Shown here piece by piece: positions 1-14,223 of a stretch of 29,227 nt of DNA. The position numbers and the translations under genes were made by a program. The stretch spans positions 3,728-32,954 of the forward strand of contig CAJUQZ010000022.1 of the NCBI GenBank assembly GCA_910588755.1, read 5' to 3'. The notes beneath the pieces were generated by a model that ran no database searches, had not been told where the DNA came from, and saw nothing but the letters and a program-made list of their open reading frames with translations. Source of the DNA: an uncultured Lachnospiraceae bacterium (GTDB lineage Bacteria > Bacillota > Clostridia > Lachnospirales > Lachnospiraceae). Numbering within the stretch: position 1 is the first letter of the stretch; the number at the start of each line of letters is the position of its first letter.

Positions 1-1383
1 CGCACCCCAGACGCGGATTCCCTGTCCCGGGAAGGAGCGGATCAGATTCACGCCCTTGGGATTGAGGATATCCTGCTCGCCCTTGTTGAACTGACAGTCC
101 AGTCCCACACATGCGCGGACTGTCTCGTTGGCCGGCGCCTTATGTACCCCTCTTGAATTGTCGCTGCGCGCGTATATTCCGATCACAGAACCTGATGGCG
201 GAATCGCGATGTTTCTCTTGTCCAGCGGATCAAATACCTCCAGCCACGGATGGTACATCGCCGCGTAATTGCTGTCCACAATCTCCCTGTGGGCAATGAT
301 GTCGTCCATCTTCTTCGCGTCTCTTGGCATATCGAGCACCGCGAAACGGCTGGCAAGATTCTCACAGTGGGCAACCAGCATCAGCTGCACATTGGGATCG
401 ATCACGCCCGGAACCGCCATGATGGAAACATTGTCGTTGTCCAGAAATGCCTGGATACCGGTCCGCTTTCCTGCACCCTTGTCCGTACCGATAAAATCAG
501 CCGCACTGATGTTTGCCACCGAACCGTTGCTGCCGCCCTTGAGTGCGATGACACAGAAAGCCTTCTCGGGGTCCTCCCCTGCAATCTCGTCAAACGGCGC
601 TACCGGCTCGCTCTTCTGGCTGCCGATATACTCCGCTACGATCAGGTCGGATTTCGCGGTCTTCTTCTCAATGTAGTTTGGAATCGATACATTAAAGGAA
701 AGATTCTCATAAAATTCCACGATGTCATCATACTTGACTTCCAGGTTGAACTCGCAGGTGGAAATCACTTTTGAGGGCAGCAGGTTCTTATCCACTACGT
801 CCTCCTCAAACTCCTTCTCAAAGACGAGGATATTGTCCTGGCTCTTCACGACACGGTTGTACACAACGTTGGTCATATCCTTGTACACAACCACGTCCCC
901 TTCATTGAAGCCCGCGGAGCTCTTCACCGAATACTGTTTGCCGTCCGCTGTCTGGAGCTCCTCTAAGATCTGTGTCTTTGCCTTGCTTGAAGGTGTCACT
1001 ACGATACTCATGTTGTTGCCCCATAAGCCGGGATTCTTTGCCCGCAGCGAAAGCACGGACTCCTGTGCCGGCGCCACGCCCTTTGCAGGCTTTGCGTCGC
1101 CTGGCGCCACGCGGGAAATATAGCACCTCGAACCTCCGTTCACAAAGAAGTGCTCCACCGCATAGGCGAGGAAACGATATTCTCCGAACTCATTCTCAGA
1201 GAGATATCCGCCAAATTTCCTCTTGAAATCCGCAAAGTTGGTCACAAGCTGCGGAACGCCCTCCGCCGGTCCTCTCTCTGCAAGACCGATAAAACCGGCC
1301 GTACTTGTACTTACGCCTTCCATTGGCTTTCCGCCTGAATCAAATTCCTCTACATATACGCCTGGTGATAAATATTCAGCCAT
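1..1383 (-). CDS. Contractile-tail sheath protein (phage-tail-like/eCIS type). The first 461 codons are present; the 3' end lies beyond the left window edge.
   Basis: This gene is absent from the ORF track because there is no stop codon inside the window. Reverse translation from the ATG at 1383-1381 is open all the way to base 1. It reads MAEYLSPGVYVEEFDSGGKPMEGVSTSTAGFIGLAERGP..., then ...GKRTGIQAFLDNDNVSIMAVPG..., AAMYHPWLEVFDP, IPPSGSVIGIYARSDNSRGVHKAPANE and NPKGVNLIRSFPGQGIRVWGA. These are the hallmark N-terminal and core motifs of the Phage_sheath family. Confidence 0.9.
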   Translation of the reverse strand, partial: MAEYLSPGVYVEEFDSGGKPMEGVSTSTAGFIGLAERGPAEGVPQLVTNFADFKRKFGGYLSENEFGEYRFLAYAVEHFFVNGGSRCYISRVAPGDAKPAKGVAPAQESVLSLRAKNPGLWGNNMSIVVTPSSKAKTQILEELQTADGKQYSVKSSAGFNEGDVVVYKDMTNVVYNRVVKSQDNILVFEKEFEEDVVDKNLLPSKVISTCEFNLEVKYDDIVEFYENLSFNVSIPNYIEKKTAKSDLIVAEYIGSQKSEPVAPFDEIAGEDPEKAFCVIALKGGSNGSVANISAADFIGTDKGAGKRTGIQAFLDNDNVSIMAVPGVIDPNVQLMLVAHCENLASRFAVLDMPRDAKKMDDIIAHREIVDSNYAAMYHPWLEVFDPLDKRNIAIPPSGSVIGIYARSDNSRGVHKAPANETVRACVGLDCQFNKGEQDILNPKGVNLIRSFPGQGIRVWGA

Positions 1384-1391
1384 AATCCTTT

Positions 1392-1428
1392 GGCATCGGC
1401 AGTACGAGCCGCCAATGCCCTCTCCTCC
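1392..1428 (-). promoter_or_regulatory. Leader hairpin lying between a strong GGAGG Shine-Dalgarno site and the sheath ATG (possible split ribosome-binding site)
   Basis: The minus strand reads GGAGG(1428-1424)-AGAG-[GGCAT TGG CGGC TCGTACT GCCG ATGCC](1419-1392)-AAAGGATT-ATG(1383). The bracketed hairpin has 5+4 bp with a 3-nt bulge. The proximal AAAGGA ends only 2 nt before the ATG, which is too close for a normal SD. Confidence 0.3.
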
Positions 1429-1759
1429 TTTCCCTTCATTAAAATAAATGTTTTTTCACAACATGCTGTTTTGTATTTCAGGTGCTTCTGCATCCTTACT
1501 TTTTCGATTATAAAACACACTACTGAACAAAATTCTAAACAATTTTCATGTTTATCCGTTTTATTTTGCAAAATATACCCCAAAAGTCGCGTTTCGTGCC
1601 AAATACCTTTTTTTTCGTCAAAATTATTTTTATAATGGTTTCAATTTCTACAAAACACGACAATATGCACAAAAATATATACAAAAAATATATACAAAAG
1701 AAGCCCCGCAAAACACCGAAAAACAAATATCAAAAAAAAAACAGAAAGATACGCTGCAA

Positions 1760-4555
1760 ATGACTGCTATAAAAAACGAAAACAACAAAATCCAAATTCC
1801 TAACGTTGACAAAGGATATACCATGCGCGCGGCCGATACGCTCCTGGCATCGCTGCAAGAGGATCTTGTTCTGCTCAACGCCGGCGCCGGTTATGGCAAA
1901 ACACAGATTCTTGCCAACTATGTCTCGCGTTTTCCCGGAAGGAGTGCGTGGTACAACATCGACAGCACGGACAACGATCTGATGTCCTTTGTCCGCAATT
2001 TCACAAAGTCGGTCCAGCACACGCTGGGAATCACCGATGAGGACTTTAATATTTCCCTACCGCTCCTGGAAAATATTGACATTTTAACAGAACAGCTAGT
2101 CATATGGCTTGACAGCCGGATTTCCTTTCTGAACGTGATTCTCGACGATTTCCAGGAGGTTGACAATCCCGATATTTTCAATCTGCTAGATATCCTCGTA
2201 AAGACGATGGACAAAAAAATCCGCCTGTTTATCGTGGAGAAGCGCTCTCTTCCCGCTTTTCTGCAAAAATATGCCGAGAGCGGACAAGCGTTCTGTATTG
2301 GAACGGACGACCTGAAAATCACGCTGCCCGAGATTGCCAGAATGCTTGAGCAGGTGGGCGAGCGCTCTGCACAGTGGGCGTCGCTTGTCTATGACTGCAC
2401 GGAAGGCTGGCCTGTGGGTATCGCCCAGATCATGCTCCAGCTGCGCCAGCAGAAAAAGAGCGTCACCTTTGAGGACCTGCAGACGATCTGCGACAACCTC
2501 GAAGTCTCCGACTACTTTATGACGCGCGTGTACAAGACGCTGCCTTTTAATATCCAGACCTTTCTGAAAAAGACGGCCGTGCTCGACTACATGACGCCCT
2601 CCATCTGCAACAAGGTGGCCGGCATCCACAATTCAGAGAGCATGCTGCGCTATCTTGTAAACGAGAAGCTCTTCGTCCAGACGCTCGGCGAGGTCAGCAG
2701 CCTGTACCGCTACCACTCTATTTTCCAGCACTTTTTGCTGGCGCAGACCGACGCCTCCGAACAGCAGGACGCACTCCGCACCGCCTCTTACTTTCTGCTC
2801 AAGACAAGCGATAAGATACAGGCCGCGGAGTACGCCTGCCGCGCGAAGGCCGCGGACATCGTGCAGACCGTGATTGAGGTCAGCGGCGACGCCATGTTAG
2901 ACGACAGGCTGTACGGCACACTAACGCGCTGGTTTACATTCATTGACGCAGAGCACTGTGAACTGTCCGCCAAGGGACGGTTTATCTATGGGAAATATCT
3001 GATGGCGCTCGGGCGCGCCAAAGAAGCCGGCGTGCAGATTGCAAAGGCCAAAAAAGACTTTTATGAAGCCGGACAGATGCCAGACTACGTCAAAGTGCTG
3101 CTGTTTGCCGCGGCCACAAAGCGCAAGGAAGGCGATCTGATCGAAGCGGAGAGTTATCTGGCGGAGGCCGATGCAGACAGCGCAAAGTCCTCAGGCGAGC
3201 TTGCAAAGGCCGTCTGCACGGAGCAGATCAAGCTTAAATGCTGCCTGCACCAGCTAAAGGACGCCGCCCTGCTGCTGTCCGGATACAGCCAGAGGGGCCT
3301 TGTATTTCTGCCAAATACCTTCTTATATGCCGCGCAGAAAACGTTTGCCGCAGACACCCTTCCGGCATTATACGATATACCTATCGTACATATACCGGAG
3401 GGTTTTCTCCTGCGAAACTGCATTCTTGCAGAACAGATGCGGGCTGCGTTTTTAGCCGGGGACCAGACCATCTCCGAGCAGGCCGCCATGAATATCATAC
3501 AGGGGTCCGCCTACGAGACACTCCAGACCGCCGCGGCGTGGGAGGTCCTTGCTATCCTGTCCTGGGACAAGGGAGACTACCGCAAGGCCGTGGAGCAGTT
3601 TCGCACGGGCAACACATTCCTGGTGAAAAACCATATATGGGACCTCGGTTTTCCGCCAAGGCAGCAGCAGATATTAAATAAAATCAACTCGGTCCACAGA
3701 AACGCCAGCGATACCCGCTATCCCGCCACCCATGAATATCATGAAGCCCCCAAAACACAGCTTGCTGAGGCGCTGCAGGCGGAAACGGTGCAAATACAAG
3801 CGCAGGCGCTGCAAAAGGAATCCGGCAAAATCAGAATTCAGTGCATGGACTGTTTCCGCGTGTTTCTTCCGGGCCCCGGGGAGCAGGAGGTAAAATGGCG
3901 CACCAAGAAGGCGCAGGAGTTGTTCGCCTATCTGTTCCACCTACAGGGAAAGGGTGTCTCCAAGGACGTGCTGATCGAGCTATTATGGCCGGATGCCGGC
4001 GCCAAGAACGCAATCGCCCTATTCCACACCACTCTCTACAGCATCCGCCAGGTCTTCTCCCAGGAGGGACTTGAGGACCTGATCTCCTACGAAAAGAAAG
4101 CATACGCCCTCAACATGCAGCTAGTGGACTCTGACCTGACGGAGCTTGCGGACTATCTTAACGACGCGAAAGCGTGCGGGGAGGAGCCGGAGCGAATCAT
4201 ACGGCTCTATCCGGGAAGTTATATGGGAAACAGCGGTTACCTCTGGTCCTACGGGGCCGCAAAGGAGCTGGAAAACAAATATTTCAAGGTACTACAGTCC
4301 GGCGCTGTCAAGCGGACCAGCCAGCGGCAGCCAGAAGCTGCGATTCCCTTTCTGCAGCGAATCATCGAGGCGGACCCCTACAACGAGGACATCGCGTCGC
4401 AGCTCATCGCCTGTCTGTACCAGAGCGGCCGGCAATCCGATGCCAAACACCAGTACGACCGTATGCAAAAACTCTACCGCGAAGACCTGGAACTGGATTT
4501 CACGAAGAGCTTTAAGGAGATTGTAAATCCGCACCCTGCAAAGGAGTATCTATGA
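1760..4555 (+). CDS. Large transcriptional regulator: N-terminal MalT-type STAND NTPase, a helical/TPR-like middle region, and a C-terminal SARP module (OmpR-type winged helix plus BTAD)
   Basis: The Walker A region reads LLNAGAGYGKTQILANY and the Walker B-like region reads NVILDDFQEVD, as in MalT/LuxR-type STAND N-termini. The C-terminus reads IRIQCMDCFRVFLPG..VKWRTKKAQELFAYLFHLQGKGVSKDVLIELLWPD...LFHTTLYSIRQ (wHTH), followed by a BTAD-like stretch: ...AIPFLQRIIEADPYNEDIASQLIACLYQSGRQSDAKHQYDRMQKLYREDLELD. The start could instead be the ATG at 1823, which is preceded by AAAGGA. The stop overlaps the next start as ATGA. Confidence 0.85.
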   Translation: MTAIKNENNKIQIPNVDKGYTMRAADTLLASLQEDLVLLNAGAGYGKTQILANYVSRFPGRSAWYNIDSTDNDLMSFVRNFTKSVQHTLGITDEDFNISLPLLENIDILTEQLVIWLDSRISFLNVILDDFQEVDNPDIFNLLDILVKTMDKKIRLFIVEKRSLPAFLQKYAESGQAFCIGTDDLKITLPEIARMLEQVGERSAQWASLVYDCTEGWPVGIAQIMLQLRQQKKSVTFEDLQTICDNLEVSDYFMTRVYKTLPFNIQTFLKKTAVLDYMTPSICNKVAGIHNSESMLRYLVNEKLFVQTLGEVSSLYRYHSIFQHFLLAQTDASEQQDALRTASYFLLKTSDKIQAAEYACRAKAADIVQTVIEVSGDAMLDDRLYGTLTRWFTFIDAEHCELSAKGRFIYGKYLMALGRAKEAGVQIAKAKKDFYEAGQMPDYVKVLLFAAATKRKEGDLIEAESYLAEADADSAKSSGELAKAVCTEQIKLKCCLHQLKDAALLLSGYSQRGLVFLPNTFLYAAQKTFAADTLPALYDIPIVHIPEGFLLRNCILAEQMRAAFLAGDQTISEQAAMNIIQGSAYETLQTAAAWEVLAILSWDKGDYRKAVEQFRTGNTFLVKNHIWDLGFPPRQQQILNKINSVHRNASDTRYPATHEYHEAPKTQLAEALQAETVQIQAQALQKESGKIRIQCMDCFRVFLPGPGEQEVKWRTKKAQELFAYLFHLQGKGVSKDVLIELLWPDAGAKNAIALFHTTLYSIRQVFSQEGLEDLISYEKKAYALNMQLVDSDLTELADYLNDAKACGEEPERIIRLYPGSYMGNSGYLWSYGAAKELENKYFKVLQSGAVKRTSQRQPEAAIPFLQRIIEADPYNEDIASQLIACLYQSGRQSDAKHQYDRMQKLYREDLELDFTKSFKEIVNPHPAKEYL

Positions 4556-6498
4556 ATCAAGCGCACAGTCAATACTACAGTTACCAGGAATTTATAGCAG
4601 ACCTGCTTGCCTGGGGCGACCAGATCTGCGGACAGCAAAACGAAAACGAAGCCGTAACTGAAACTGAAATAAAAACCAACCCCGAAACAAAATCCTTGTC
4701 CTTCCTGACATTATTGCAAAAATCAGCGGAAAGTGCCGACCAGGGGATTTTCTCGCCCTTTTTATACACCGCCCTCTCCGCGCAGCTGGCGCAGGAGGAC
4801 ATGCTGTTGTTTGCCGCCGCCTTCTATGCAAATCTGAACGGGGAACTGCTCACGCCCGAAATGTGGCATCTTTTTGCCGGTCACGAAAAAACCGACATAC
4901 TGGAGGCAGAACTATATTACCAGTCTGCCCCCCTTTTATATATACGCACGGATGCCGGGCTGCAGATCGTGCCCCAGATTGCCCTCTTTTTGCAGGGCGC
5001 CTGTCTGGAACGACAGAACCTTCCCGGTATGCACTGGTACTATGATATCAAGGACAGTCTCCCTCCCCTCGGAAAAACCATTCAGTTATACCGCAAAATC
5101 GATGCCTGTCTCTCTCTCGTACCGGGCAAAAAATTGGTCTATCTGCAGGGGGAACCAGGCAGCGGGCGCCGGTTAAACTATGCCTATCTTGCCGCAAAGT
5201 CCCACATGAGCCTGGCTGTAATCTCCTACGAGGCGCTGCAGTCCGGGCAACAACTGCGGGAAATCCAAATTGAATGCCTGCTGCACCATGCGCTGTTTGT
5301 CATTGAACTGCCCGCGCAGCCGGCAGACCTGGCACCCCTTATGCGCTGGCTCTCGCAGGAGGAAACCATATTCCTGTTGGGCACAAAGCCCAATCTGCCG
5401 GAGGCCGTCACTTTTTCGCGGCAGTACCTTCCTTTTTCGGTCTGCGCGCAGCAGGTGCTTGCGGACAAGGAACTGTACGAACAGATGACGCAGGCTTATT
5501 CATGGGAGCGCGAGGACGTGCGGACGGATTTTTTAAACCGCTACAACTTCCTGCCCGGCAGAATGCGCAGCATACTCGAACTTGCCAAAGCCTGCGCGCT
5601 AAGCCAGGGCAGCGGCGCCATCACCGGGGAATACCTGCGCAACGCCATTTTGGGCGTCTCCTCGCACTGTCTAGACCAGTACGCCACCAAGATTCAGGGG
5701 CTGTACCAGATGGACGACCTGATTCTCCCGGAACGCCCCAAGCAGCAGCTTGCGCACATTATAAACCGCGTCCGCAACCGGAAGCTGGTCTACGAGACCT
5801 GGGGATTTCTGGAAAAATCAGCCTACGGCAACGGCACAGCCATGATCTTTGCAGGGCCGCCGGGCACCGGAAAGACGATGGCCGCACAGGTCATGGCATC
5901 GGCGCTTGGCATGGAGCTCTACCGCATCGAACTGCCCGCCGTCGTGGACAAATACATCGGTGAGACGGAGAAAAAATTAAACCGCATCTTTGACGAGGCG
6001 GAGAAAAGCATGGCGATTCTCTTCTTTGACGAGGCGGATGTATTATTCTCAAAGCGTACAGAAGTAAAAGAGTCCAACGACAAGTACAGCAACATGGAAA
6101 TCGCCTTTCTGCTGCAGAAGATGGAGGAGTATGAGGGCGTGAGTATCCTTGCGACCAATTACCTGCAGAATTTTGACAGCGCCTTCCACCGCCGCGTCTG
6201 CGATATTATCAATTTCCCGCTGCCAGACGCCGACATGCGCCTGCAGATGTGGCAGTCGATGCTCCCCTCAAAGCTTCCGGTGTCGGACGACATTGACTTT
6301 CACTTCCTCGCGGCGCACTTCGAGCTGTCCGGCAGCATGATTAAAAACGCGCTGATCTATGCCAGCTTTCTGGCCGCGGAGGACAAAACGCCGCTTCTTA
6401 CAATGGAACAAATACTGAAAGGACTGCGTCACGAGCTTGAAAAAAGCGGCAAAAAATTAAGCCGTGACGAGTATGGAGAATATGGGCACTTATTTTGA
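4552..6498 (+). CDS. AAA+ ATPase with a long N-terminal domain and a single C-terminal AAA module (Afp15/Pvc15-like eCIS ATPase)
   Basis: The sequence reads FAGPPGTGKTMAAQVMASALGMELYRIELPAVVDKYIGETEKKLNRIFDEAEKSMAILFFDEADVLFSKRTEVKESNDKYSNMEIAFLLQKMEEYEGVSILATN...FHRR. This covers Walker A, Walker B and the arginine-finger region. An AAGGAG SD lies 5 nt upstream, and the ATGA overlap with the regulator stop suggests translational coupling. Confidence 0.9.
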   Translation: MNQAHSQYYSYQEFIADLLAWGDQICGQQNENEAVTETEIKTNPETKSLSFLTLLQKSAESADQGIFSPFLYTALSAQLAQEDMLLFAAAFYANLNGELLTPEMWHLFAGHEKTDILEAELYYQSAPLLYIRTDAGLQIVPQIALFLQGACLERQNLPGMHWYYDIKDSLPPLGKTIQLYRKIDACLSLVPGKKLVYLQGEPGSGRRLNYAYLAAKSHMSLAVISYEALQSGQQLREIQIECLLHHALFVIELPAQPADLAPLMRWLSQEETIFLLGTKPNLPEAVTFSRQYLPFSVCAQQVLADKELYEQMTQAYSWEREDVRTDFLNRYNFLPGRMRSILELAKACALSQGSGAITGEYLRNAILGVSSHCLDQYATKIQGLYQMDDLILPERPKQQLAHIINRVRNRKLVYETWGFLEKSAYGNGTAMIFAGPPGTGKTMAAQVMASALGMELYRIELPAVVDKYIGETEKKLNRIFDEAEKSMAILFFDEADVLFSKRTEVKESNDKYSNMEIAFLLQKMEEYEGVSILATNYLQNFDSAFHRRVCDIINFPLPDADMRLQMWQSMLPSKLPVSDDIDFHFLAAHFELSGSMIKNALIYASFLAAEDKTPLLTMEQILKGLRHELEKSGKKLSRDEYGEYGHLF

Positions 6499-7540
6499 AG
6501 AAGAACACGAAAGATCACAATGGGAATCCGGACAGGCCCTTCTGCACAGCGAATCCGTCAAAAAACACAATGACGGCCAACGGGAGAACGACAGGGAACG
6601 CAGCAAGGAAAACGAATCGTACCGCGTGCAAAATTCTTACGGAACCCTCCGCTATCTCAAAAAAGACAAAAAGAAGGGTGAGGAAAAAGAAGGCTTTGCC
6701 GTGGAGGCCTTCGAGGCGCCAAACACCCGTCTCCACACGGACGCGGAAAAACACCTGGACCGCAAGAGCATCAAGAAAGTAAAGCAGAATCATAAGCATA
6801 CCCTATATTCCTCCGAGCTTCCCCTGCGCGACCAGGCGCTCTTTATCGACATGCGGGGCGGCAAAAAAAGTGCGGACATGATCCAGTACATGAAGACGCT
6901 TGTCCAAAAACAAGGGCACCAGACCTTAAAGGACACCTTTGGTTTCCTGGACCAGGAGGAGGAGCGCGCGGAGCTAGAAGCCCTGAAGGAAAAAAGAAAA
7001 TCAGAGGAAAGCAATGAACAGGCATTGATGCAGAAATCAGAAAAAAGCCCTGAACAGGATTTGACACAGAAATCAGAAAAAAACCCTGAACAGGCATTGA
7101 TGCAGAAATCAGCACACAAGCCTGAACAAGAAACCGAGGAAAAAGACTTCGCTTCCCACGAAGACATGATATCCCAGAGAGAACATCAGTTTGAGAATAA
7201 TAAGCGCATCGATACCCTAAACAGCCGCCTTCGCAGAAAAGAAGCCTTAGAACGCCAGCTTCGAAACGATCTGCAGGTCATGCTGGACCAGCGTGGCCGG
7301 GAGGAGGTGCTTGAAGCACAAAAGGACCCCTCGCAGAATGCGTCTGAAACTGCTGACACCAAACAAAATCCAAAGCAGAGCGCTGCCAAAAAGGACGATT
7401 CCACGCGGAGGCGCTTTCGCGTGGACACAGAGGTTTCAGAGGCCGACGGAACCGTTTCCGGCGCGGACGAAGATGTTTTCGGGACAGATGACTCCTCCGG
7501 CCCCGACGAGGACGGAATGCCTCAGGATACAGTTCCTTAG
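6473..7540 (+). CDS. Hypothetical, highly charged K/E/Q/D-rich protein with 12-aa tandem repeats, probably largely disordered
   Basis: This is a long open frame overlapping the 3' end of the ATPase gene. Possible starts are GTG 6464, ATG 6473 and ATG 6482. I recognise no enzymatic motif. The composition is low-complexity, so the coding call rests on ORF length, co-orientation and the in-frame repeat structure. Confidence 0.6.
   Translation: MENMGTYFEEEHERSQWESGQALLHSESVKKHNDGQRENDRERSKENESYRVQNSYGTLRYLKKDKKKGEEKEGFAVEAFEAPNTRLHTDAEKHLDRKSIKKVKQNHKHTLYSSELPLRDQALFIDMRGGKKSADMIQYMKTLVQKQGHQTLKDTFGFLDQEEERAELEALKEKRKSEESNEQALMQKSEKSPEQDLTQKSEKNPEQALMQKSAHKPEQETEEKDFASHEDMISQREHQFENNKRIDTLNSRLRRKEALERQLRNDLQVMLDQRGREEVLEAQKDPSQNASETADTKQNPKQSAAKKDDSTRRRFRVDTEVSEADGTVSGADEDVFGTDDSSGPDEDGMPQDTVP
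7013..7130 (+). repeat. Three full 36-nt in-frame tandem repeats plus a partial fourth, encoding (N/P)EQ(A/D)L(M/T)QKSEK(S/N)
   Basis: Read directly from the sequence: aatgaacaggcattgatgcagaaatcagaaaaaagc / cctgaacaggatttgacacagaaatcagaaaaaaac / cctgaacaggcattgatgcagaaatcagcacacaag / cctgaacaag... Confidence 0.9.
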
Positions 7541-9144
7541 CATTCCATTTTCGCCTTGTACTCCAGACACAGCATTGTAATATCGTCAAACTGCGGCGCT
7601 TCCCCCACGAACGCATCCAGGTCCGCTTTGATTTCCGGCAGCAGTTTTATCGGCGGCAGGGCTGCATTTTTACAGAGCACATTTTTCAGCCGCTCCATCC
7701 CATAGAGTTCATTGCCCTCATTGGCCGCCTCTGTGACGCCGTCCGTATACTGGAAAATCTTATCCCCTATTTCCAGCTGCATGGAACCGCACTGGTATTG
7801 TATATCCTCAAGCCCGGCAAGGACAAACCCTGCTTTGATCTTATAAGGTTCATACGTTTTGCCCTTTTTGCACAAAAAGGGGATCTCATGGCCCGCATTG
7901 ACAAAGCAAAACTCCCCTGTCACAAGGTCCAGCACACCCTCAAAGGCAGTGATAAACATTCCTTCTGAGTTGGATTTACACAGCAGATTGTTCACCTCTG
8001 TAAACACCTCGCCCAGATTTCTTCCCGGCTTTGTATGATCCTTAATCAGCGTCTTGCCGATCACCATAAAGAGTGCGGCGGGCACTCCTTTACCGGAAAC
8101 ATCTGCCATGACAATCGCAAGATGACTATTGTCCACCATGAAGAAATCATAAAAATCGCCGCCCACTTCCTTTGCCGGGTTCATGCTTGCATAGATATCA
8201 AATTCCTTCCTGTCCGGAAATGCCGGAAAAATTCCAGGCAGCATATCGGCCTGTATCTTCGTTGCCACGTTCAGTTCAGCGCCAATCCGCTCCCTCTCCG
8301 CTGTGATCGTCTTGATATCCGTTATGTACAGCTCTATCCTGCCGATCATGTTATTGAAAGAATCGGACAACCATTTAATCTCATTGTTGTCCTTAAATGT
8401 GACCGGCTCAAGCGTGAGGCTCCCTTTTTCATAAGAATCAATATACTTTGTCAATGCAATGATGGGGCTTGCCACACCCGTGTCGATCACCCTGACCATG
8501 ATCGCAGTAATCACAACAAGCGCTACGACAATGAAAAAGAAGATTTTCAGCACATAACTGTTGATTTCCCGCTCCACTCTGGTCAGCACATAATCGCCCT
8601 CCACCATAGCAGCAACTTCACCGTTTCTGTCAAAAACAGGCGCCCACACAGAAATAGATCTTCCAAACCCCACATCTTCGCCGTATACCACCTGCGTAGA
8701 TGCGCTTTTGGCCTTCACATCGGGCAGCAGATAGGTATATTCTGTCTCCCTGTATTCAAAGACAGAACCAAACGCAGATATATTGTCCATATCGTCCTGA
8801 TCGGTATAAGCGTCGATCACATACACGAAATGGTCTTCATAAGGCACCATGAGATACAGATAACTCAGTCCCGACGTATTTGCCTTGACGTTGTTGAACC
8901 GGGACAGCAGCGCGTCATATGCCTCATCCGTACTGCCCGTATCAACATATTGGACAATCTTATCCCCATCAATCTCATTTGCCAGCATCTTCACAATGCC
9001 AAGGGCCTTGTCATAATAAAAATTGATATAAGTATTATAAAACGCTTTGTAACTGATGCATATCAAAATAAAACTCATAACAGCAACCAATATACATATG
9101 ATGCCAATGATCTTTCTCCTCAGGCCTATTCGTTTTTTATTCAT
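7537..9144 (-). CDS. Membrane-bound PP2C (SpoIIE/RsbU-type) serine phosphatase with domain order TM, extracytoplasmic Cache-like sensor, TM, HAMP, PP2C
   Basis: The N-terminal TM segment is IIGIICILVAVMSFILICI and the second TM is IFFFIVVALVVITAIMV. PP2C motifs are EVGGDFYDFFMVDNSHLAIVMADVSGKGVPAALFM, ...VNAGHEIPFL... and QYTDGVTEA...DDITMLCLEY. The start overlaps the GNAT stop (ATGAATAA). Confidence 0.9.
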   Translation of the reverse strand: MNKKRIGLRRKIIGIICILVAVMSFILICISYKAFYNTYINFYYDKALGIVKMLANEIDGDKIVQYVDTGSTDEAYDALLSRFNNVKANTSGLSYLYLMVPYEDHFVYVIDAYTDQDDMDNISAFGSVFEYRETEYTYLLPDVKAKSASTQVVYGEDVGFGRSISVWAPVFDRNGEVAAMVEGDYVLTRVEREINSYVLKIFFFIVVALVVITAIMVRVIDTGVASPIIALTKYIDSYEKGSLTLEPVTFKDNNEIKWLSDSFNNMIGRIELYITDIKTITAERERIGAELNVATKIQADMLPGIFPAFPDRKEFDIYASMNPAKEVGGDFYDFFMVDNSHLAIVMADVSGKGVPAALFMVIGKTLIKDHTKPGRNLGEVFTEVNNLLCKSNSEGMFITAFEGVLDLVTGEFCFVNAGHEIPFLCKKGKTYEPYKIKAGFVLAGLEDIQYQCGSMQLEIGDKIFQYTDGVTEAANEGNELYGMERLKNVLCKNAALPPIKLLPEIKADLDAFVGEAPQFDDITMLCLEYKAKMEC

Positions 9145-9724
9145 AGCCGCCTCCGTTCCTGTCTCTGCCTCTTACTTCCAGAAGTTCTATCAGCGCGCCG
9201 CATCGGCAGTCATCACCGCATATGGGGCACTTGATGTTATATTTTTTTAGGTCTTTATAAAACAGGGGAATTTTTTTCTGATACACTGCTTCTCCGATTC
9301 CCCTTAACGGATTTTGGGCCGGAACGCTGCCGTCCGGATAAATCCACAGTTCCACAAGCGCAAGCGCAACTTTTTTGCTAAGAAGCGCTCTTTTCATCCG
9401 GCGGACCAGTTCTTTCGCAACCCCTTTTTTTCGGTACGCTTCCAGCACCAGAAGTCCGTCAGGCGTATACAGTTTCCTGTCTCCTGCCACTTCCCGGATC
9501 TCGTTTTCCAGTTCAGGGTGTGGATAGGTGAATCCAATCCCGCCCTGTCCCGAAAAAAATCCCACCAGCTTCCCTCCGTCACAAGCCTTCAAACCCAGGT
9601 AATCATCAGTATGAAATTCCTTCCGTATTGTGTCGCGAATGTAACCGCCTCTATTCAGGTAAGTCTCGTACAAAGCGATAATCTGATCTAAATCTTTTTC
9701 TTCTATACAGGAATATGTAACCAT
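9137..9724 (-). CDS. GNAT-family N-acetyltransferase with a C-terminal Cys cluster
   Basis: The acetyl-CoA motif A-like segment reads LLVLEAYRKKGVAKELVRRM. The C-terminal cluster reads CPICGDDCRCG. A GGAGG SD lies 9 nt upstream of the start. The gene overlaps the downstream phosphatase gene by 8 nt. Confidence 0.75.
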   Translation of the reverse strand: MVTYSCIEEKDLDQIIALYETYLNRGGYIRDTIRKEFHTDDYLGLKACDGGKLVGFFSGQGGIGFTYPHPELENEIREVAGDRKLYTPDGLLVLEAYRKKGVAKELVRRMKRALLSKKVALALVELWIYPDGSVPAQNPLRGIGEAVYQKKIPLFYKDLKKYNIKCPICGDDCRCGALIELLEVRGRDRNGGGYE

Positions 9725-9730
9725 CGCATC

Positions 9731-12634
9731 CTACCTCCTCTTTCTGTCCGCTCCCAAAAACAGGCAAACCAGTAAAAACATCAAAAGAAACAGCACAAAA
9801 ATACCAGTTCGATTCCCAAGTGTGAGCGCAGCGCCATATATAACCGGTCCAAGCGTCTGCCCGGCATTTTCAAACATGGCATAAATTCCCATCGCATTTC
9901 CCATTCCTGCCTCGGAACACTCATCCAGCCCTTCAAAATAGGTATACTGGCAAGTGTACGCAAAGGAGATCACCACAGCTAGGATAATCATGCCTGCAAA
10001 GACACTGACCGGATTCGGAAACAGGGCAAACAATGCCATGTCAAAAGCCATGCACAGACTTGCCAGAACCACGCTCTTCTTCGCCCCAAGCGTCCTCAAA
10101 AGGTATTTCGAGAGCAGCGGCCCTATATAGATCACAAGCATACCACAGCCAAGATAAATCCGCCCGATGGTGACTTCATCGACACCAAACTGTTCCACAT
10201 ACAACGGGAAGAAATATTCCCGGTAGGACAGCGACATCATAAACGGAACCAGAATCAGCGCAAAGAAAGCCATGACACGCTTTTGGAACAAAAAACGGAC
10301 AATATGCATACGCTCCTGTGTCTCTTTCTTACCGTTACCGAATTTCACATTTTGCGCCTGTATCGTAAGCAGCAGCCCCAAACCTAAGAAGATGGCACCT
10401 GCCAGATATACGATCCTGTAATCGGCAAACGCGAGAATGATCGAGCCAAGCCCTGCCCCGATCGTGACGCCGGAAAGCACTCCCGCCGAGACATCGGCAA
10501 AGGCAGACGCTACGTACTCATCATTGCCGCCCATAGACGCCATTGTGTTGGAAGTCACATACACAGTTCCCATTCCCATACCAATCAGTAGTTTCCCTGC
10601 CAGGATTCCCATATAACCGGGAACCAACAGGCAGATGATAAAACCTGCCATCTGGCCGGTAAGCCCCAGCTGCATAACTCTCTGTATGCCGAATTTCTCC
10701 GCCAGCCTGCCGCCGCACGTTGAAAATATGGCAGCCATCATCAGCTGCAGGGATATCGGAAGCGCAATGGCAAGTTCGCGCGAAATAGGGAACACGTCTG
10801 TATAGAGTCTGGAACAGAGAATCGCGATAAAGGCATCCTGCATGGAATCCGTCATATATGACAGAAAAACCATCAGCCGTATTGGCATCTGCTGTGTGAT
10901 ATCCCATTTTGCTTTCGGTATCCCCTTTCTTTTCTCAAAAAAAGAAAGGACAAAAATGCACTCCAATACCAGCATGATCATGACACCGCAGCTGCAGATG
11001 ACCGTTATGATGTTTTCTGCCACCAGTTCCCTTTTTTCCTGCACTGCCTTGTCAAGACTCGAACCCACCTCAATAAACGCAATGATGGCGCCGCTGTTGT
11101 CCCTGACAGGCAGCAGCGTAAACATCCATGAACCATAGGAACTAATCTCACTGACCGTATAGCTTTCTCCCGTCACCAGGACCTGTGTGTACTCATTGTC
11201 GCCAAACGCATAGATTGGCTGCCCGCATACCGTCGTGTCCTCATAGTCCATCAGACAGTTGATCGTTTTGCCATCTGTCGTATACAGGGCATAGTAGTAA
11301 TATGCCCCGTGGTCATAACTGGTCAATATCATTTGATCAAGCCTGTTCTTAATCTCCATATACTCCTGCGAGTGGTAATCGGACAGCCTTCCCAGTCGTT
11401 TCAGTTTCTCTGCGTCCACCTGCTGTCTGAGACTTTCCGCAAAAATCTGCATATTGTCCATAATCAGTCTGTCCTGATTGTCCATCATGGAGGAAATCGA
11501 GGAATAAGACGCGATCGCCGCCACAATTGCAGAAGAAACAACTACCAGCACAATTCTGCTAAAACCAGCTTTATCTGGTATACCCCGCACAATCTTTGTG
11601 ATGATTGTTATGACCATGACGACAGCTGCTATGCCGGCCATCATCAGCAAAATCCAGAAGTTCACCACCCTGAAATAGTTTCCGACGCCAGTGCTCTCCC
11701 ATACTGTCGGTATCATATCCGAAACATTCAGACTGATAAAGCGCTCATTATCGGTCGCGAGTATGGTTCTGCCATCTTCCGACAGACAAATTGCATAGAG
11801 TATGTTATCACTCTGACAGACGGCCTTTGTCTCACCAGGTGCAGACAGGGAAAAATGCATGATACAACCCGTCTGCAAATCTGTATAATACACCTGGCCG
11901 TCCACAGACGCAATGTTCCACGGAATCTGGTTCCCTACATAACATGGAACTTCTGACCAGTTCCCAGTCCGCAGGGAATGATAATATATTTCGCCTAACC
12001 TGGTCGTGATGACCAGCGTTTGACTTGCTGCATCATAGGCGGCATCACTGACATAAAACGCACAGGGAACTTCCGCTGACTTCTCCACCTGACAATCTTC
12101 ACCTTCCACATGAATCTTGTATATGTCTATCCTCGCATCTTCTTTCTTCAGAAAGTATACACTGCCTTCATACGCCTGCACTTCCAATATACCGCCATAC
12201 TGTAGGGGCGGATTTTCACTGAGCGCATAATCAAACTCATATATGATTTCCCGCTGATGCCCTGTGATTTTGATAATGCGCTCTTTCTGTATGCGGTTGC
12301 CCTGCTCCCCCGAGATCACGTCCGCTATGTAGATTCCGCCAGAATCATCTCCGCAGACGTGGGCGGCATAGAAAAAATCTGCCCGTTCGCTTCCTCCGGA
12401 GAGTTTTCGGATCAATTCCCCTCTGCTATTTAAGACAATAACCGTTTTTTTGCCCTGATCGATCACATACGTGCTGCCGTCGCTCCCCCGCGCAGCCTCG
12501 CCGACCGATTCGAATGTATATTCTTTTGTGAAGGGGGACTGGGACACTGCCTCGCGATTCCAGTACAAAAAAACCGCCAGGCAGACTCCCACCAGCAGAC
12601 AACCGGCAATCCTGAACCATTTTCTCTTTTCCAT
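9731..12634 (-). CDS. 967-aa fusion protein with domain order signal-anchor TM, beta-propeller-like repeats, 2 TM, Cache-like domain, MFS transporter
   Basis: The N-terminal roughly 300 aa contain about six repeats of the type STYVIDQGKKTVIVLN / GIYIADVISG / GSVYFLKKED / QTLVITTRLGEIYY / GQVYYTDLQTG / GRTILATDNE. The middle domain reads ...YYYYALYTTDGKTINCLMDYED...SYGSWMFTLLPVRDNSGAIIAFIEVG. The C-terminal roughly 400 aa are polytopic, with the MFS-like loop GGRLAEKFGIQRVM. Confidence 0.8.
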   Translation of the reverse strand: MEKRKWFRIAGCLLVGVCLAVFLYWNREAVSQSPFTKEYTFESVGEAARGSDGSTYVIDQGKKTVIVLNSRGELIRKLSGGSERADFFYAAHVCGDDSGGIYIADVISGEQGNRIQKERIIKITGHQREIIYEFDYALSENPPLQYGGILEVQAYEGSVYFLKKEDARIDIYKIHVEGEDCQVEKSAEVPCAFYVSDAAYDAASQTLVITTRLGEIYYHSLRTGNWSEVPCYVGNQIPWNIASVDGQVYYTDLQTGCIMHFSLSAPGETKAVCQSDNILYAICLSEDGRTILATDNERFISLNVSDMIPTVWESTGVGNYFRVVNFWILLMMAGIAAVVMVITIITKIVRGIPDKAGFSRIVLVVVSSAIVAAIASYSSISSMMDNQDRLIMDNMQIFAESLRQQVDAEKLKRLGRLSDYHSQEYMEIKNRLDQMILTSYDHGAYYYYALYTTDGKTINCLMDYEDTTVCGQPIYAFGDNEYTQVLVTGESYTVSEISSYGSWMFTLLPVRDNSGAIIAFIEVGSSLDKAVQEKRELVAENIITVICSCGVMIMLVLECIFVLSFFEKRKGIPKAKWDITQQMPIRLMVFLSYMTDSMQDAFIAILCSRLYTDVFPISRELAIALPISLQLMMAAIFSTCGGRLAEKFGIQRVMQLGLTGQMAGFIICLLVPGYMGILAGKLLIGMGMGTVYVTSNTMASMGGNDEYVASAFADVSAGVLSGVTIGAGLGSIILAFADYRIVYLAGAIFLGLGLLLTIQAQNVKFGNGKKETQERMHIVRFLFQKRVMAFFALILVPFMMSLSYREYFFPLYVEQFGVDEVTIGRIYLGCGMLVIYIGPLLSKYLLRTLGAKKSVVLASLCMAFDMALFALFPNPVSVFAGMIILAVVISFAYTCQYTYFEGLDECSEAGMGNAMGIYAMFENAGQTLGPVIYGAALTLGNRTGIFVLFLLMFLLVCLFLGADRKRR

Positions 12635-12666
12635 CTGATTCCCCTGTACAATGCTGCGCTAAATTC

Positions 12667-12963
12667 TTATATGATTGACAGGATATCTGCAAAACCTGTC
12701 ACCTCAAAGATTTCCATTATTGTATCATTTACATGAGCCACTTTCATGCTGCCCTGCCTGTTCATCGTCTTCTGTGCGCCCAGCAGAACACGCAGTCCCG
12801 CGGATGACAGATAATCCAGCGCCGCCATGTCAATCGTAAGCTCCGTCACGCCTTCAAGGGAATCTTTCAGCATGCCCTCAAGCTCTGGTGCCGTGCTTGT
12901 ATCAAGCCGTCCTTCTAAAGCCAGTGTTAAATTGTTTCCATTTTGTGTTTTTGTTATTTTCAT
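12667..12963 (-). CDS. STAS-domain anti-sigma-factor antagonist (SpoIIAA/RsbV-like), copy 1
   Basis: The 98-aa protein reads MKITKTQNGNNLTLALEGRLDTSTAPELE...TIDMAALDYLSSAGLRVLLGAQK...VNDTIMEIFEVTGF. The S-x-G-L phospho-serine motif is present. Confidence 0.9.
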   Translation of the reverse strand: MKITKTQNGNNLTLALEGRLDTSTAPELEGMLKDSLEGVTELTIDMAALDYLSSAGLRVLLGAQKTMNRQGSMKVAHVNDTIMEIFEVTGFADILSII

Positions 12964-12974
12964 GAATTTCTTCC

Positions 12975-13034
12975 TTTCTTATCTGCACATTTCTTATCTG
13001 CGCATTTCTTATCTGCACATTTCTTATCTGCACG
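12975..13034 (-). repeat. Four perfect or near-perfect 15-nt tandem direct repeats in the leader of the STAS gene
   Basis: The plus strand reads tttcttatctgcaca / tttcttatctgcgca / tttcttatctgcaca / tttcttatctgcacg at 12975, 12990, 13005 and 13020. On the minus strand the unit is TGTGCAGATAAGAAA. The array ends 11 nt from the STAS ATG and abuts its SD (AGGAAGAA). Confidence 0.95.
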
Positions 13035-13167
13035 TTGGCCAGCTCAATTTGCCTGTACATGATCCAGGAAAGCAAGGCTCCTCGCCAACATGACCTATTA
13101 TATTATCTATACTTTTTTTATATAATTTCCGTTACAGGAACGAATGTTTTGCGCCTTTCTGTACAGT

Positions 13168-13578
13168 CTATATCAGTTTCCTAATACGCAATATATTCTG
13201 TCCGTCCTTATACTCATAAGAAACATCATCCATCGTCCTCTTTACCATGTAGATTCCCAGACCGCCAATCTCGCGTTCTTCAGCGGAAAGCGTGATGTCA
13301 GGGTCTTCCCTGGCAAGCGGATCATACGGAATGCCATTGTCCATAAACGTTATCACAACCGCAAGCGGGTCCTTCGCCACCTCAACGCGCACTGTTGCGC
13401 TGCCAATTTCAGGATTGTAAGCATAATGGGCAATATTGCTGAAAAGTTCTTCAACCGCTATATCAACCTGCATCTGCGTCTTTATGGGACAATGATACTG
13501 CTCGAGCTGCGCATCAACAAATTCGAGCACTCCAGGTACGTTTTCAATTGTTGCCTCAACCATCCATTCTTTCATCAT
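13168..13578 (-). CDS. RsbW/SpoIIAB-type anti-sigma-factor-like serine kinase (HATPase_c_2), stand-alone
   Basis: The sequence reads MMKEWMVEATIENVPGVLEFVDAQLE..QMQVDIAVEELFSNIAHYAY (N-box), ITFMDNGIPYDP (G1) and IGGLGIYMVKR (G2). The start is ambiguous among TTG 13581, ATG 13578 and ATG 13575. The ORF-track start at 13611 is probably too far upstream. Confidence 0.85.
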   Translation of the reverse strand: MMKEWMVEATIENVPGVLEFVDAQLEQYHCPIKTQMQVDIAVEELFSNIAHYAYNPEIGSATVRVEVAKDPLAVVITFMDNGIPYDPLAREDPDITLSAEEREIGGLGIYMVKRTMDDVSYEYKDGQNILRIRKLI

Positions 13579-13707
13579 CAATCCCCCATGCCTCCAATCC
13601 CCGGGCCACATGTTTCTTGCAGGCCGTTCCCTCCTGCTTCTTTTTCATTGTCATTGTGAACTTTCCTTCCCTTTCCTTCCTAAGGAACTGTCCCTTTTTT
13701 ATTTCTA

Positions 13708-14202
13708 TTACCAAAACCTGTCGAGGGACTGTCCCCTGATACTGTACTGCATAATCTTATCCCTAAGCTCTGCGGTCCTTTTCTTATTGGTATGATCCTT
13801 GTCATAAATATCATCCAGCAAAAGTTCGACGTTCTTCTGCATGAGGTGAAAACTCTGCGCCATACTTGTCATGATATCAACAGCATTTCTCGGATAATTC
13901 ACAATAAATTTCTCCACAGAGTCCTTTGTAATCCGCATCAGCAAGACATCGTCATACGCCACAGCTGTATAGATACAGGGTTGATCAGAAAATATGTTCA
14001 ACTCCCCAAAGCACCTTGGCTTTGAATAGATTCCTACAATGTGCTCATCCTTTTCCCCATACCGCATATAGATCGCTACAGAGCCGGATAAAATCTTATA
14101 CATTGCATCACATTTTTCTCCTTCGCGCATAATCATCTCATCTGCGCTGAATTTCTGCATTGCGCTGTTTTTGTTTGCTGTATCCTGTTCCAATTCCGCC
14201 AT
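13708..14202 (-). CDS. Stand-alone cyclic-nucleotide-binding (CAP effector) domain protein with no DNA-binding domain
   Basis: The sequence reads MIMREGEKCDAMYKILSGSVAIYMRYGEKDEHIVGIYSKPRCFGELNIFSDQPCIYTAVAYDDVLLMRI, which matches the beta-roll/phosphate-binding-cassette pattern (FGE...). A GGGAGGA SD lies upstream. Confidence 0.75.
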   Translation of the reverse strand: MAELEQDTANKNSAMQKFSADEMIMREGEKCDAMYKILSGSVAIYMRYGEKDEHIVGIYSKPRCFGELNIFSDQPCIYTAVAYDDVLLMRITKDSVEKFIVNYPRNAVDIMTSMAQSFHLMQKNVELLLDDIYDKDHTNKKRTAELRDKIMQYSIRGQSLDRFW

Positions 14203-14223
14203 ATTTTTATTCCTCCCGTCTTT

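Follow-up and report, generated by a model that had tools for sequence, protein, structure and literature searches.

What kind of contractile machine begins at the left edge of this stretch of Lachnospiraceae DNA, and what is the role of an AAA+ ATPase that lies across a divergent intergenic region from its sheath gene? The whole stretch that was analysed, hereafter the window, comprises 29,227 nucleotides, and a preliminary description of its first 7540 positions had seen there the edge of an extracellular contractile injection system (eCIS)-like locus with a divergent regulator-ATPase operon. We put a probability of roughly 0.8 on the reading that a chromosomal contractile injection system (CIS) locus of ~37.6 kb, with a putative SARP-activated sheath promoter and a second ATPase, has its right-hand end at window positions 1-7540. 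The features of this end are the following:

1..1383, minus strand: 5' part of a Cis2/Afp2-like sheath gene, 461 of 578 codons, running off the left edge
1384..1759: divergent intergenic region, 376 bp, 32.4% GC against 49.5% for the window
1392..1419, minus strand: hairpin in the sheath 5' untranslated region, 11-bp stem and 6-nt loop
1507..1512, minus strand: candidate -10 box TATAAT of the sheath operon promoter, read from the sequence
1523..1542, minus strand: candidate SARP operator, direct repeats TTGTTTAG-N4-TTGTTCAG, overlapping the -35 position
1760..4555, plus strand: STAND-type regulator, 931 aa
4552..6498, plus strand: AAA+ ATPase, 648 aa, assigned as a paralogue to the Afp15/Cis15 superfamily
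6473..7540, plus strand: open reading frame 3 (ORF3), 355 aa, highly charged, third gene of the operon

On the minus strand a stop-free frame of 461 aa runs from 1383 to 1 with the start MAEYLSPGVYVEEF; the sheath gene start and its leftward exit, as proposed before, are borne out by this frame and by matches to Pfam and to solved CIS sheaths. The fragment matches Pfam Phage_sheath_1 (PF04984) with E 7e-18, and its best solved structures are 9EZM (1.7e-77), 8BKY (3e-61) and 8BL4 (2e-58). The Pvc2, Afp2-4, AlgoCIS and Anabaena CIS sheaths follow with E 1e-9 to 1e-16, while the R-pyocin sheath reaches only 4.5e-7. In bit scores the sheath reaches 443-463 against CIS sheaths and 282 against the best phage match. 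Three related loci recur below: L012, from a species with 77% identity in the window ATPase, L013 from Clostridium symbiosum (41%), and L037, from another Lachnospiraceae metagenome-assembled genome (MAG). The sheaths of L013 and L037 are 79-81% identical to that of the window from the first residue onwards, which supports 1383 as the start; automatic gene calls with a start 20 codons later are probably too short.

The genes to the left were reached through near-identical contigs, including L001 (ENA contig NODE_175, to which the window is 99.93% identical over 16.5 kb) and L009 (an NCBI MAG contig, 100% identical to the window's first 1367 nt), both of which hold the full-length sheath gene, and their products were scanned against Pfam and PHROG. 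The sequence of the window ATPase is found exactly on 18 public contigs. From a distal ATPase to ORF3 the locus covers ~37.65 kb of contig and about 25 genes, and its structural operon reads leftward as follows:

sheath, 578 aa, first gene of the leftward operon (PF04984 and PF17482)
gp19-type tube, second in leftward order (PF06841; the two tube genes score E 3.5e-43 and 6e-13)
122-aa protein (p122), third, tail-assembly-chaperone-like
DUF6760 protein, fourth, between p122 and the second tube
second gp19-type tube, fifth (PF06841)
tape-measure candidate, 1668/1676 aa, repeat-rich (L001:2-3505, minus strand; L009:3313-8343)
CIS_tube initiator of Afp7 type (PF19266, 116 bits)
spike of Afp8 type as two genes, gpD-like and gpV-like (PF05954 plus PF04717)
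gp25 of Afp9 type (PF04965, 84 bits)
wedge protein of gp6/J type, 966 aa
Baseplate_J of Afp11 type, a second gp6/J-type wedge protein, 706 aa (PF04865, E 1e-10)
Tail_P2_I-like (P2-gpI-like) protein, 384 aa
proteins of 575, 297 and 667 aa after the Tail_P2_I-like one, that of 667 aa with MORN repeats
Pvc16_N cap, 203 aa, on the same contig (its 82%-identical L018 homologue scores 95 bits)
244-aa protein and then a PAAR-like DUF4280 protein, leftward of the cap
polytopic HAMP membrane protein, 923 aa (L033:7213-9984)
variable 614-aa protein with an acidic N-terminus, a cargo candidate (L033:10001-11845)
distal ATPase, 741 aa, canonical Afp15 type with winged-helix domain (WHD), D1 and D2, leftmost gene of the operon

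Loci of the eCIS kind are defined by eight core subunit types (Chen et al. 2019, PMC6899500), and this locus holds 8/8 of them, including sheath, tube, the Afp7, Afp8, Afp9 and Afp11 types, ATPase and Pvc16_N cap. By homology and synteny the identity of the leftward structural operon is established: on the extended contigs the leftward genes make up a complete CIS with the eight core types and not a myovirus prophage. The survey for phage genes covered the whole 37.6-kb locus, ~8 kb past its distal end and the ~22 kb of window past its proximal end. It found no capsid, portal, terminase, integrase, holin or endolysin gene across contig 58-37711 or in the flanks, and the earlier statement that no phage lysis, capsid or integrase gene lies on this side holds for the entire locus and its surroundings. 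Nothing phage-like was seen in the rest of the window beyond 7540, and Rfam gave no match in the window.

The scores and motifs of the window ATPase place it in the Afp15 superfamily. It matches Pfam AAA at residues 431-556 (E 3e-28), and both peptides quoted from it earlier, KYIGETEKKL and SKRTEVKESNDKYSNMEIAFLLQKME, are present. A short divergent N domain is followed by D1, in whose Walker A motif (GEPGSGRR; G-x2-G-S-G-R) Lys is replaced by Arg, and by an intact D2 with GPPGTGKT (G438-T442), DEAD (D493-D496), a KY pore loop (K467/Y468), N536 and R547/R548. All D2 catalytic residues are invariant in 17 homologues, and the D2 domain of Pvc15, of the classic clade, is described with GTGK, DEAD, a KY pore loop, a sensor-1 Asn and a double Arg finger; loading or stabilising signal-peptide-tagged cargo is a biochemical property of Afp15/Pvc15 (PMC11495950). 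A tblastn search of plasmids with the window ATPase recovered CIS-embedded ATPases. The match from Serratia proteamaculans sits between a 'contractile injection system tape measure protein' gene and a DUF4255 gene, and since this is the position of Afp15 in the Afp cluster we regard it as an Afp15 homologue. To this protein, residues 319-634 of the window ATPase are 38% identical (224 bits, BLASTP), and the CIS-embedded ATPases of Nostoc and Rhodococcus plasmids score 276 and 273 bits at 43-49% identity. Among other AAA+ proteins, p97/Cdc48 (the best match in the PDB) scores 117-122 bits, FtsH 50, CbbX 33.7 and SpoVK 25.6, so by score the enzyme groups with Afp15-type ATPases as proposed and not with SpoVK or CbbX. 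The hhalign comparison with a CIS-ATPase profile gave a probability of 100% over 605 columns (38-645). In an AlphaFold2 model built from a 17-sequence alignment, the N-D1 half has a pLDDT of about 85-94 and a five-stranded P-loop fold. The top Foldseek matches of the model are the tandem-AAA proteins p97/Cdc48/NVL/Rix7 over ~570 columns, with TM-scores that are low (0.23-0.32) because of the poorly modelled D2; they would support 'tandem AAA, p97-like' only and no specific family.

One part of the preliminary description did not survive the leftward extension, namely that the ATPase is split off from the structural operon. The operon keeps a WHD+AAA ATPase of 741 aa at its distal end, which matches PF22977 (a WHD variant) with 52 bits (Serratia Afp15 homologue, 62 bits) as well as AAA, and which aligns over 620-660 residues with Afp15 and with the Nostoc and Rhodococcus ATPases. 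Since this canonical copy lies on the same contig, the structural operon has not lost its ATPase. The distal gene is present in 8/8 relative loci whose fetched sequence extends to its position. It shares 46% identity with the window ATPase over D2 and is not among the listed homologues of the latter. In BLAST only the D2 half of the window ATPase resembles Afp15, with no similarity of the N-terminal half to Afp15; a phmmer search with the N-D1 half retrieved 11 of 1.84 billion cluster representatives, only one of the 11 full-length, and gave no link to the N-D1 region of canonical Afp15. By these comparisons the window ATPase is a further, divergent paralogue whose N-terminal half is restricted to its lineage.

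The regulator upstream of this paralogue combines a MalT-like NTPase with a WHD (residues ~23-405), a central helical region (~406-690) and a C-terminal SARP module made of a winged helix-turn-helix (wHTH, ~700-800) and BTAD (814-915). Residues 23-382 score 148 bits against NCBIfam MalT, and since the equivalog cut-off is 537 the protein is not MalT itself; GAGYGKT and ILDDF motifs are present, and precomputed annotation lists PF25873 WHD_MalT. Residues 814-915 match Pfam BTAD with 53 bits (cut-off 22), plus TPR, and residues 707-917 align to AfsR positions 42-257 (NCBIfam, E 2e-4). The regulator is 30% identical to that of L037, which carries Trans_reg_C and BTAD (PF00486+PF03704); the regulators share the NTPase and SARP modules, and the window one has an extra central region of ~250-285 residues. 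From these matches it appears to be of SARP type, wHTH then BTAD, with weaker evidence for the wHTH than for BTAD. The published eCIS 'shell' domains already include BTAD regulators (PMC8213781).

The stop codon of the regulator gene and the start codon of the ATPase gene overlap as ATGA (4552-4555) behind AAAGGAG, and ORF3 overlaps the 3' end of the ATPase gene by 26 nt; because of these overlapping junctions we regard the three genes as one operon. The STAND/SARP regulator and AAA+ ATPase operon described earlier is thereby present and translationally coupled. ORF3 is probably largely disordered and has no Pfam, NCBIfam, PADLOC or PHROG match. To the gene at the same position in L012 it shows 43% identity over 310 aa, with conserved blocks, and a charged ORF of 269-315 aa occupies its position in L012, L013 and L037. 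The trio of regulator, short ATPase and charged ORF adjoins the sheath gene in four lineages, divergently in the window and L012, co-directionally in L013 and L037. The synteny with the sheath in both orientations speaks against a chance neighbour or an independent defence system, and the pairing of the ATPase with a dedicated regulator, which had been read from this single stretch, is real and conserved. In L037 a canonical WHD+AAA ATPase and a 706-aa eCIS_core (PF13699/DUF4157) protein are encoded at L037:2881-7147, immediately upstream of the regulator-short ATPase-ORF3-sheath block; all these genes are co-directional, and the two ATPases are only ~5 kb apart.

The intergenic region between the two operons is as AT-rich as had been stated, and its sheath-proximal half is conserved with L012, its regulator-proximal half not. 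On the sheath strand, 1542-1507 reads TTGTTTAG-N4-TTGTTCAG, 10 nt, TATAAT. Upstream of the C. symbiosum sheath gene TTGTTAAG-N3-TTGTTAAG is followed by 10 nt and TAGAAT in a different surrounding context, and L012 has identical repeats to the window, with TATGAT at the -10 position, again 10 nt away. The TTGTTnAG repeat pair occurs once in the window, and 0/100 window shuffles match it. Among the compared loci 10/36 bear the pattern (seven near-identical copies of the window locus, L012, and C. symbiosum L013/L014), in every case as a single copy close upstream of the sheath gene, with a register of 12 nt in the window and L012 and of 11 nt in C. symbiosum. SARPs recognise direct repeats that are spaced by one turn of the helix (11- or 22-bp register) and contact the first 8 bp of each repeat, the 3' repeat lying ~8 bp from the -10 box (PMC10936776). 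Here the 8-bp repeat core ends 10 nt before the -10 box, and this box lies 18 nt from where the downstream repeat starts, compared to ~17 nt at afsS. The geometry makes the repeat pair a candidate SARP-type operator, and since the repeats are unique, conserved and spaced in a SARP-like manner, we infer that the regulator activates the sheath operon there. A sigma-70 consensus scan of the intergenic region performed no better than on shuffles and missed the TATAAT candidate. A 13-nt tandem repeat, AAAAATATATACA x2 at 1671-1701, 60-90 nt upstream of the regulator start, was rejected as operator, since L012, with its shorter intergenic region, lacks it.

The hairpin in front of the sheath gene lies between a strong Shine-Dalgarno (SD)-like AAGGAGGAGAGGG and the sheath ATG, next to which there is only a weak and very close AGGA. 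It is present in the minimum free energy and centroid folds. When the aligned L012 sequence is paired by hand the stem persists, with one G-U changed to A-U and two G-C to G-U, and C. symbiosum has a shorter stem at the same place. The hairpin may bring the distant SD near the start codon or act as a translational control.

We propose that an unknown signal would cause the regulator to oligomerise via its NTPase, and that its SARP domains would then bind the TTGTTnAG direct repeats, which would stand in for the -35 element of the sheath promoter. The bound regulator would recruit RNA polymerase and the structural operon would be switched on. A hexamer of the window ATPase could act post-translationally on CIS subunits or cargo as a Pvc15-like unfoldase or chaperone, for which ORF3 may be an adaptor or a substrate, and the window and the canonical distal ATPase might divide the labour in some way.

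Several observations weigh against this reading of the right-hand end. The window ATPase gives no match to PF22977 (Pfam WHD) at E <= 0.01, and with only 11 relatives of its N-D1 half it may have moved away from Afp15 in function. The D2 domain is poorly modelled by AlphaFold2 (pLDDT below 50 for 455-556). ORF3 resembles its C. symbiosum counterpart only marginally. The promoter is sampled in no more than three distinct species, the 12-nt register in the window and L012 deviates from the canonical 11 nt, and the target of the regulator could be its own operon or other genes and not the sheath promoter.

A distal module from the 297-aa protein through the ATPase is common to 13/13 retrieved Lachnospiraceae GTDB species genomes, which include Petralouisia muris NM01_1-7b and Sporofaciens musculi WCA-9-b2; judged by the names of related genomes, the host habitat is probably the rodent or another mammalian gut. 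Between species the identities are 24-78% for the 614-aa protein, 44-79% for the HAMP protein and 40-87% for the ATPase. The N-terminus of the 614-aa protein, ~200 residues long, is acidic, of low complexity, rich in P, E, A and Q and has no known domain. Since its gene is the most variable of the distal module and lies just upstream of the canonical ATPase gene, the protein is a cargo or effector candidate by composition, position and variability. The HAMP protein, encoded inside the CIS operon in 13/13 Lachnospiraceae loci, has 4-5 predicted transmembrane segments, HAMP at 579-624 and a C-terminal region that by eye looks nucleotide-cyclase-like; a membrane anchor or sensor is a possible role. 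The window also encodes a cNMP-binding protein at 13708-14202. The tape-measure candidate contains two long arrays of ~12-residue repeats (..ED.EFAEKLL..) and lacks a Pfam or PHROG match, as do the 575-, 297-, 244- and 614-aa proteins with respect to PHROGs. Its homologues in related species range from 861 to 1963 aa, a spread that suggests rapid length change and possibly different tail lengths.

The term 'extracellular' in the preliminary description is unsupported, since the nearest sheaths come from an archaeal CIS resembling the type VI secretion system (T6SS) and from the cytoplasmic Streptomyces CIS, and the conserved HAMP protein and the lack of lysis genes would fit a cell-associated mode. 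A genuine CIS that acts from inside, either membrane-anchored and contact-dependent like that of Halogeometricum or cytoplasmic like that of Streptomyces, with the HAMP protein as anchor or sensor, is a possibility we take seriously, although we rate it below even chances. The best solved sheaths, 9EZM (haloarchaeal 'T6SS') and 8BKY/8BL4 (cytoplasmic), are far ahead of Pvc and Afp; haloarchaeal Cis11 is closest to Bacillota homologues (PMC11566945); the sheath-tube-chaperone-DUF6760-tube order is common with pHBOR03, whose p122 is 59% identical; and the polytopic HAMP protein is kept in all 13 loci. A holin or endolysin for release through the thick Gram-positive wall was not found in locus or flanks, but release could use lysis genes encoded elsewhere, relatives carry eCIS-type cargo markers (eCIS_core/DUF4157 in L037), and the mode of action cannot be read from sequence. 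A more elaborate form, in which the CIS would be cell-associated and signal-gated (T6SS-like or cytoplasmic), the regulator would sense, the HAMP protein would anchor or trigger, the distal ATPase would load cargo and the paralogue with ORF3 would remodel or recycle sheath or baseplate in a ClpV-like way, strikes us as doubtful; if true, no contact-dependent contractile weapon would have been described in Bacillota before it. A canonical T6SS (i-iii), which has a two-part TssB/TssC sheath, a TssJLM membrane complex and ClpV but no tape measure, was rejected in view of a single PF04984/PF17482 sheath gene, a tape-measure-sized gene and no Pfam matches in the locus to the Tss membrane complex.

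That the leftward genes are instead an R-type tailocin (a diffocin-like bacteriocin) or the tail module of a myovirus prophage is very unlikely, even though the sheath (PHROG tail sheath, E 5e-74), tube, gp25, J and I proteins have matches in phage families as well and one IMG/VR 'viral' contig bears a related sheath. On that contig the genes recognised by our queries were all of tail or baseplate type, the remaining ORFs being unannotated. The locus itself lacks all the head, integration and lysis genes surveyed across contig 58-37711 and the flanks, its sheath scores are clearly on the CIS side, and two AAA+ ATPases, Pvc16_N, CIS_tube (PF19266) and DUF4280 are markers of CIS and not of phages or tailocins (PMC6899500, PMC12210884). 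We consider it highly improbable, too, that regulator and ATPase form a STAND/AAA+ anti-phage defence system of their own, of IetA type, that happens to stand beside the CIS. STAND NTPases are common in defence systems, and D2 scores 112 bits against PADLOC IetA and 99 bits against NCBIfam IteA (cut-off 510), but PADLOC gave only D2-level matches, to IetA and TRIP13, and the canonical distal ATPase matches IetA better (135 bits), so the match reflects the shared D2 type. No IetS-type protease is adjacent to the window ATPase, regulator and ORF3 have no PADLOC match, and in four lineages the trio keeps its place beside the sheath gene, in one or the other of two orientations. Hardly tenable, finally, is the idea that the window ATPase is the sole Afp15 orthologue of the locus, relocated out of the structural operon. 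A single ATPase lies just upstream of the sheath gene in related loci of Bacillota (Paenibacillus) and actinobacteria (Rhodococcus), and the window gene is in a perhaps ancestral position, but a more canonical ATPase of 741 aa stands at the distal end of the same locus and contig and is kept in 8/8 relatives with sequence reaching that far. The reading as a CIS locus with an additional ATPase beside its regulator is the one we prefer.

An ATPase of this type also occurs in another genomic setting. At L038:2661-6177 the gene of a WHD+AAA Afp15-type ATPase (P0114, 720 aa) is followed directly by one for an ADP-ribosyl exotoxin; CIS structural genes were not seen within 10 kb downstream, and L038 may be an orphan ATPase-toxin pair. 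The window locus is bordered by housekeeping genes: the distal flank past the 741-aa ATPase holds genes for a DUF308 protein, a hybrid kinase, radical SAM, HAD and Fic proteins, rpsT and gpr, and past ORF3 the proximal flank holds SpoIIE, GNAT and MFS genes. Genes of partner-switching signalling crowd this proximal flank at 7537-16020 and 22235-24358. They encode two HAMP-containing PP2C phosphatases of SpoIIE type, one of them fused to a HATPase_c_2 anti-sigma kinase domain, a STAS protein, stand-alone HATPase_c_2 kinases, a MatE transporter with a fused HATPase_c_2 domain, and a 967-aa protein in which an N-terminal domain is joined to an MFS transporter. The gene of the first phosphatase is convergent with ORF3, and the ends of the two overlap by 4 nt. 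On the minus strand at 24424-29066, a 4'-phosphopantetheinyl transferase gene stands beside a gene for a single-module protein resembling nonribosomal peptide synthetases (1252 aa; partial C, A, T and a terminal reductase). This pair is a small standalone natural-product locus unrelated to the CIS.

The locus belongs to a known kind of system, given that CIS loci of Firmicutes are already catalogued (PMC6899500, PMC8213781) and BTAD is a known eCIS shell domain. In the literature searched we found no experimental study of a Bacillota CIS (Streptomyces belongs to Actinomycetota), nothing specific on Lachnospiraceae CIS or on links between SARPs and CIS, and no description of paired Afp15-type ATPases, of the regulator-ATPase-ORF3 module or of the putative operator. 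Human-gut CIS are reported to be almost exclusively from Bacteroidota (2025 metagenome survey, PMC12210884), and eCIS to be depleted from human-associated microbiomes (Geller et al.). The locus type occurs in at least 13 Lachnospiraceae species genomes, and a related layout in C. symbiosum. Since surveys give gut CIS as essentially those of Bacteroidota and cultured hosts exist, Lachnospiraceae CIS are a reasonable experimental lead, and with P. muris NM01_1-7b and S. musculi WCA-9-b2 in culture experiments are feasible. The candidate operator at 1523-1542, the dedicated STAND-SARP activator and the ATPase pair are testable parts, and the two ATPase paralogues could separate the proposed roles of Afp15. 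As the nearest structural relative is a T6SS-like archaeal system, the locus raises the question of how such a machine acts in a thick-walled Gram-positive cell.

That relative, the CIS of Halogeometricum borinquense (pHBOR03, 9EZM), is T6SS-like and membrane-anchored as shown experimentally; it belongs to clade IIa, which had no characterised representative before that study, and its Cis11 is closest to Bacillota proteins (PMC11566945). It is our best solved sheath match (about 52% identity by tblastn) and has in common with the Lachnospiraceae locus the order of the first five genes, the similar p122, a DUF4255/Pvc16-type cap and a WHD+AAA ATPase. It differs in being archaeal and plasmid-borne, in having one ATPase, whose gene adjoins that of the cap, in its DUF4157 effectors and true PAAR, and in lacking a STAND-SARP regulator and a charged ORF3. 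The CIS of Streptomyces coelicolor (8BKY/8BL4), the second-best solved sheath match (E 3e-61 and 2e-58), is cytoplasmic and has an intracellular role in cell death and development (PMC10066040). It shares a Gram-positive host and a lineage II type locus with an ATPase; its host is actinobacterial, and a STAND-SARP/ATPase/ORF3 module is unreported for it.

Afp of Serratia and PVC of Photorhabdus, both of them extracellular CIS, have, as the locus described here, all eight core gene types of Chen et al. (2019). Afp15 and Pvc15 share GTGK, DEAD, the KY pore loop and the RR finger with the window ATPase, whose D2 is 38% identical to the Afp15 homologue, and the D1 of Pvc15 is reported with the same Lys-to-Arg change in Walker A. 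Unlike our locus, Afp and PVC belong to lineage I, come from Gram-negative hosts and have three sheath paralogues and a single ATPase with PF22977 at the 3' end, whereas here there are two ATPases, of which the window copy has no detectable WHD, a spike split into two genes and a giant, repeat-rich tape-measure candidate. For the regulator, the relatives are AfsR/MalT-type proteins, which likewise combine an NTPase/NOD, helical repeats and wHTH plus BTAD, and SARP operators likewise consist of direct repeats abutting the -10 box, as the candidate here. Compared to AfsR the domain order is reversed, with the NTPase N-terminal and the SARP module C-terminal like the LuxR domain of MalT; the host is a Firmicute, the register is 12 nt, and the proposed target is a CIS operon instead of an antibiotic cluster.

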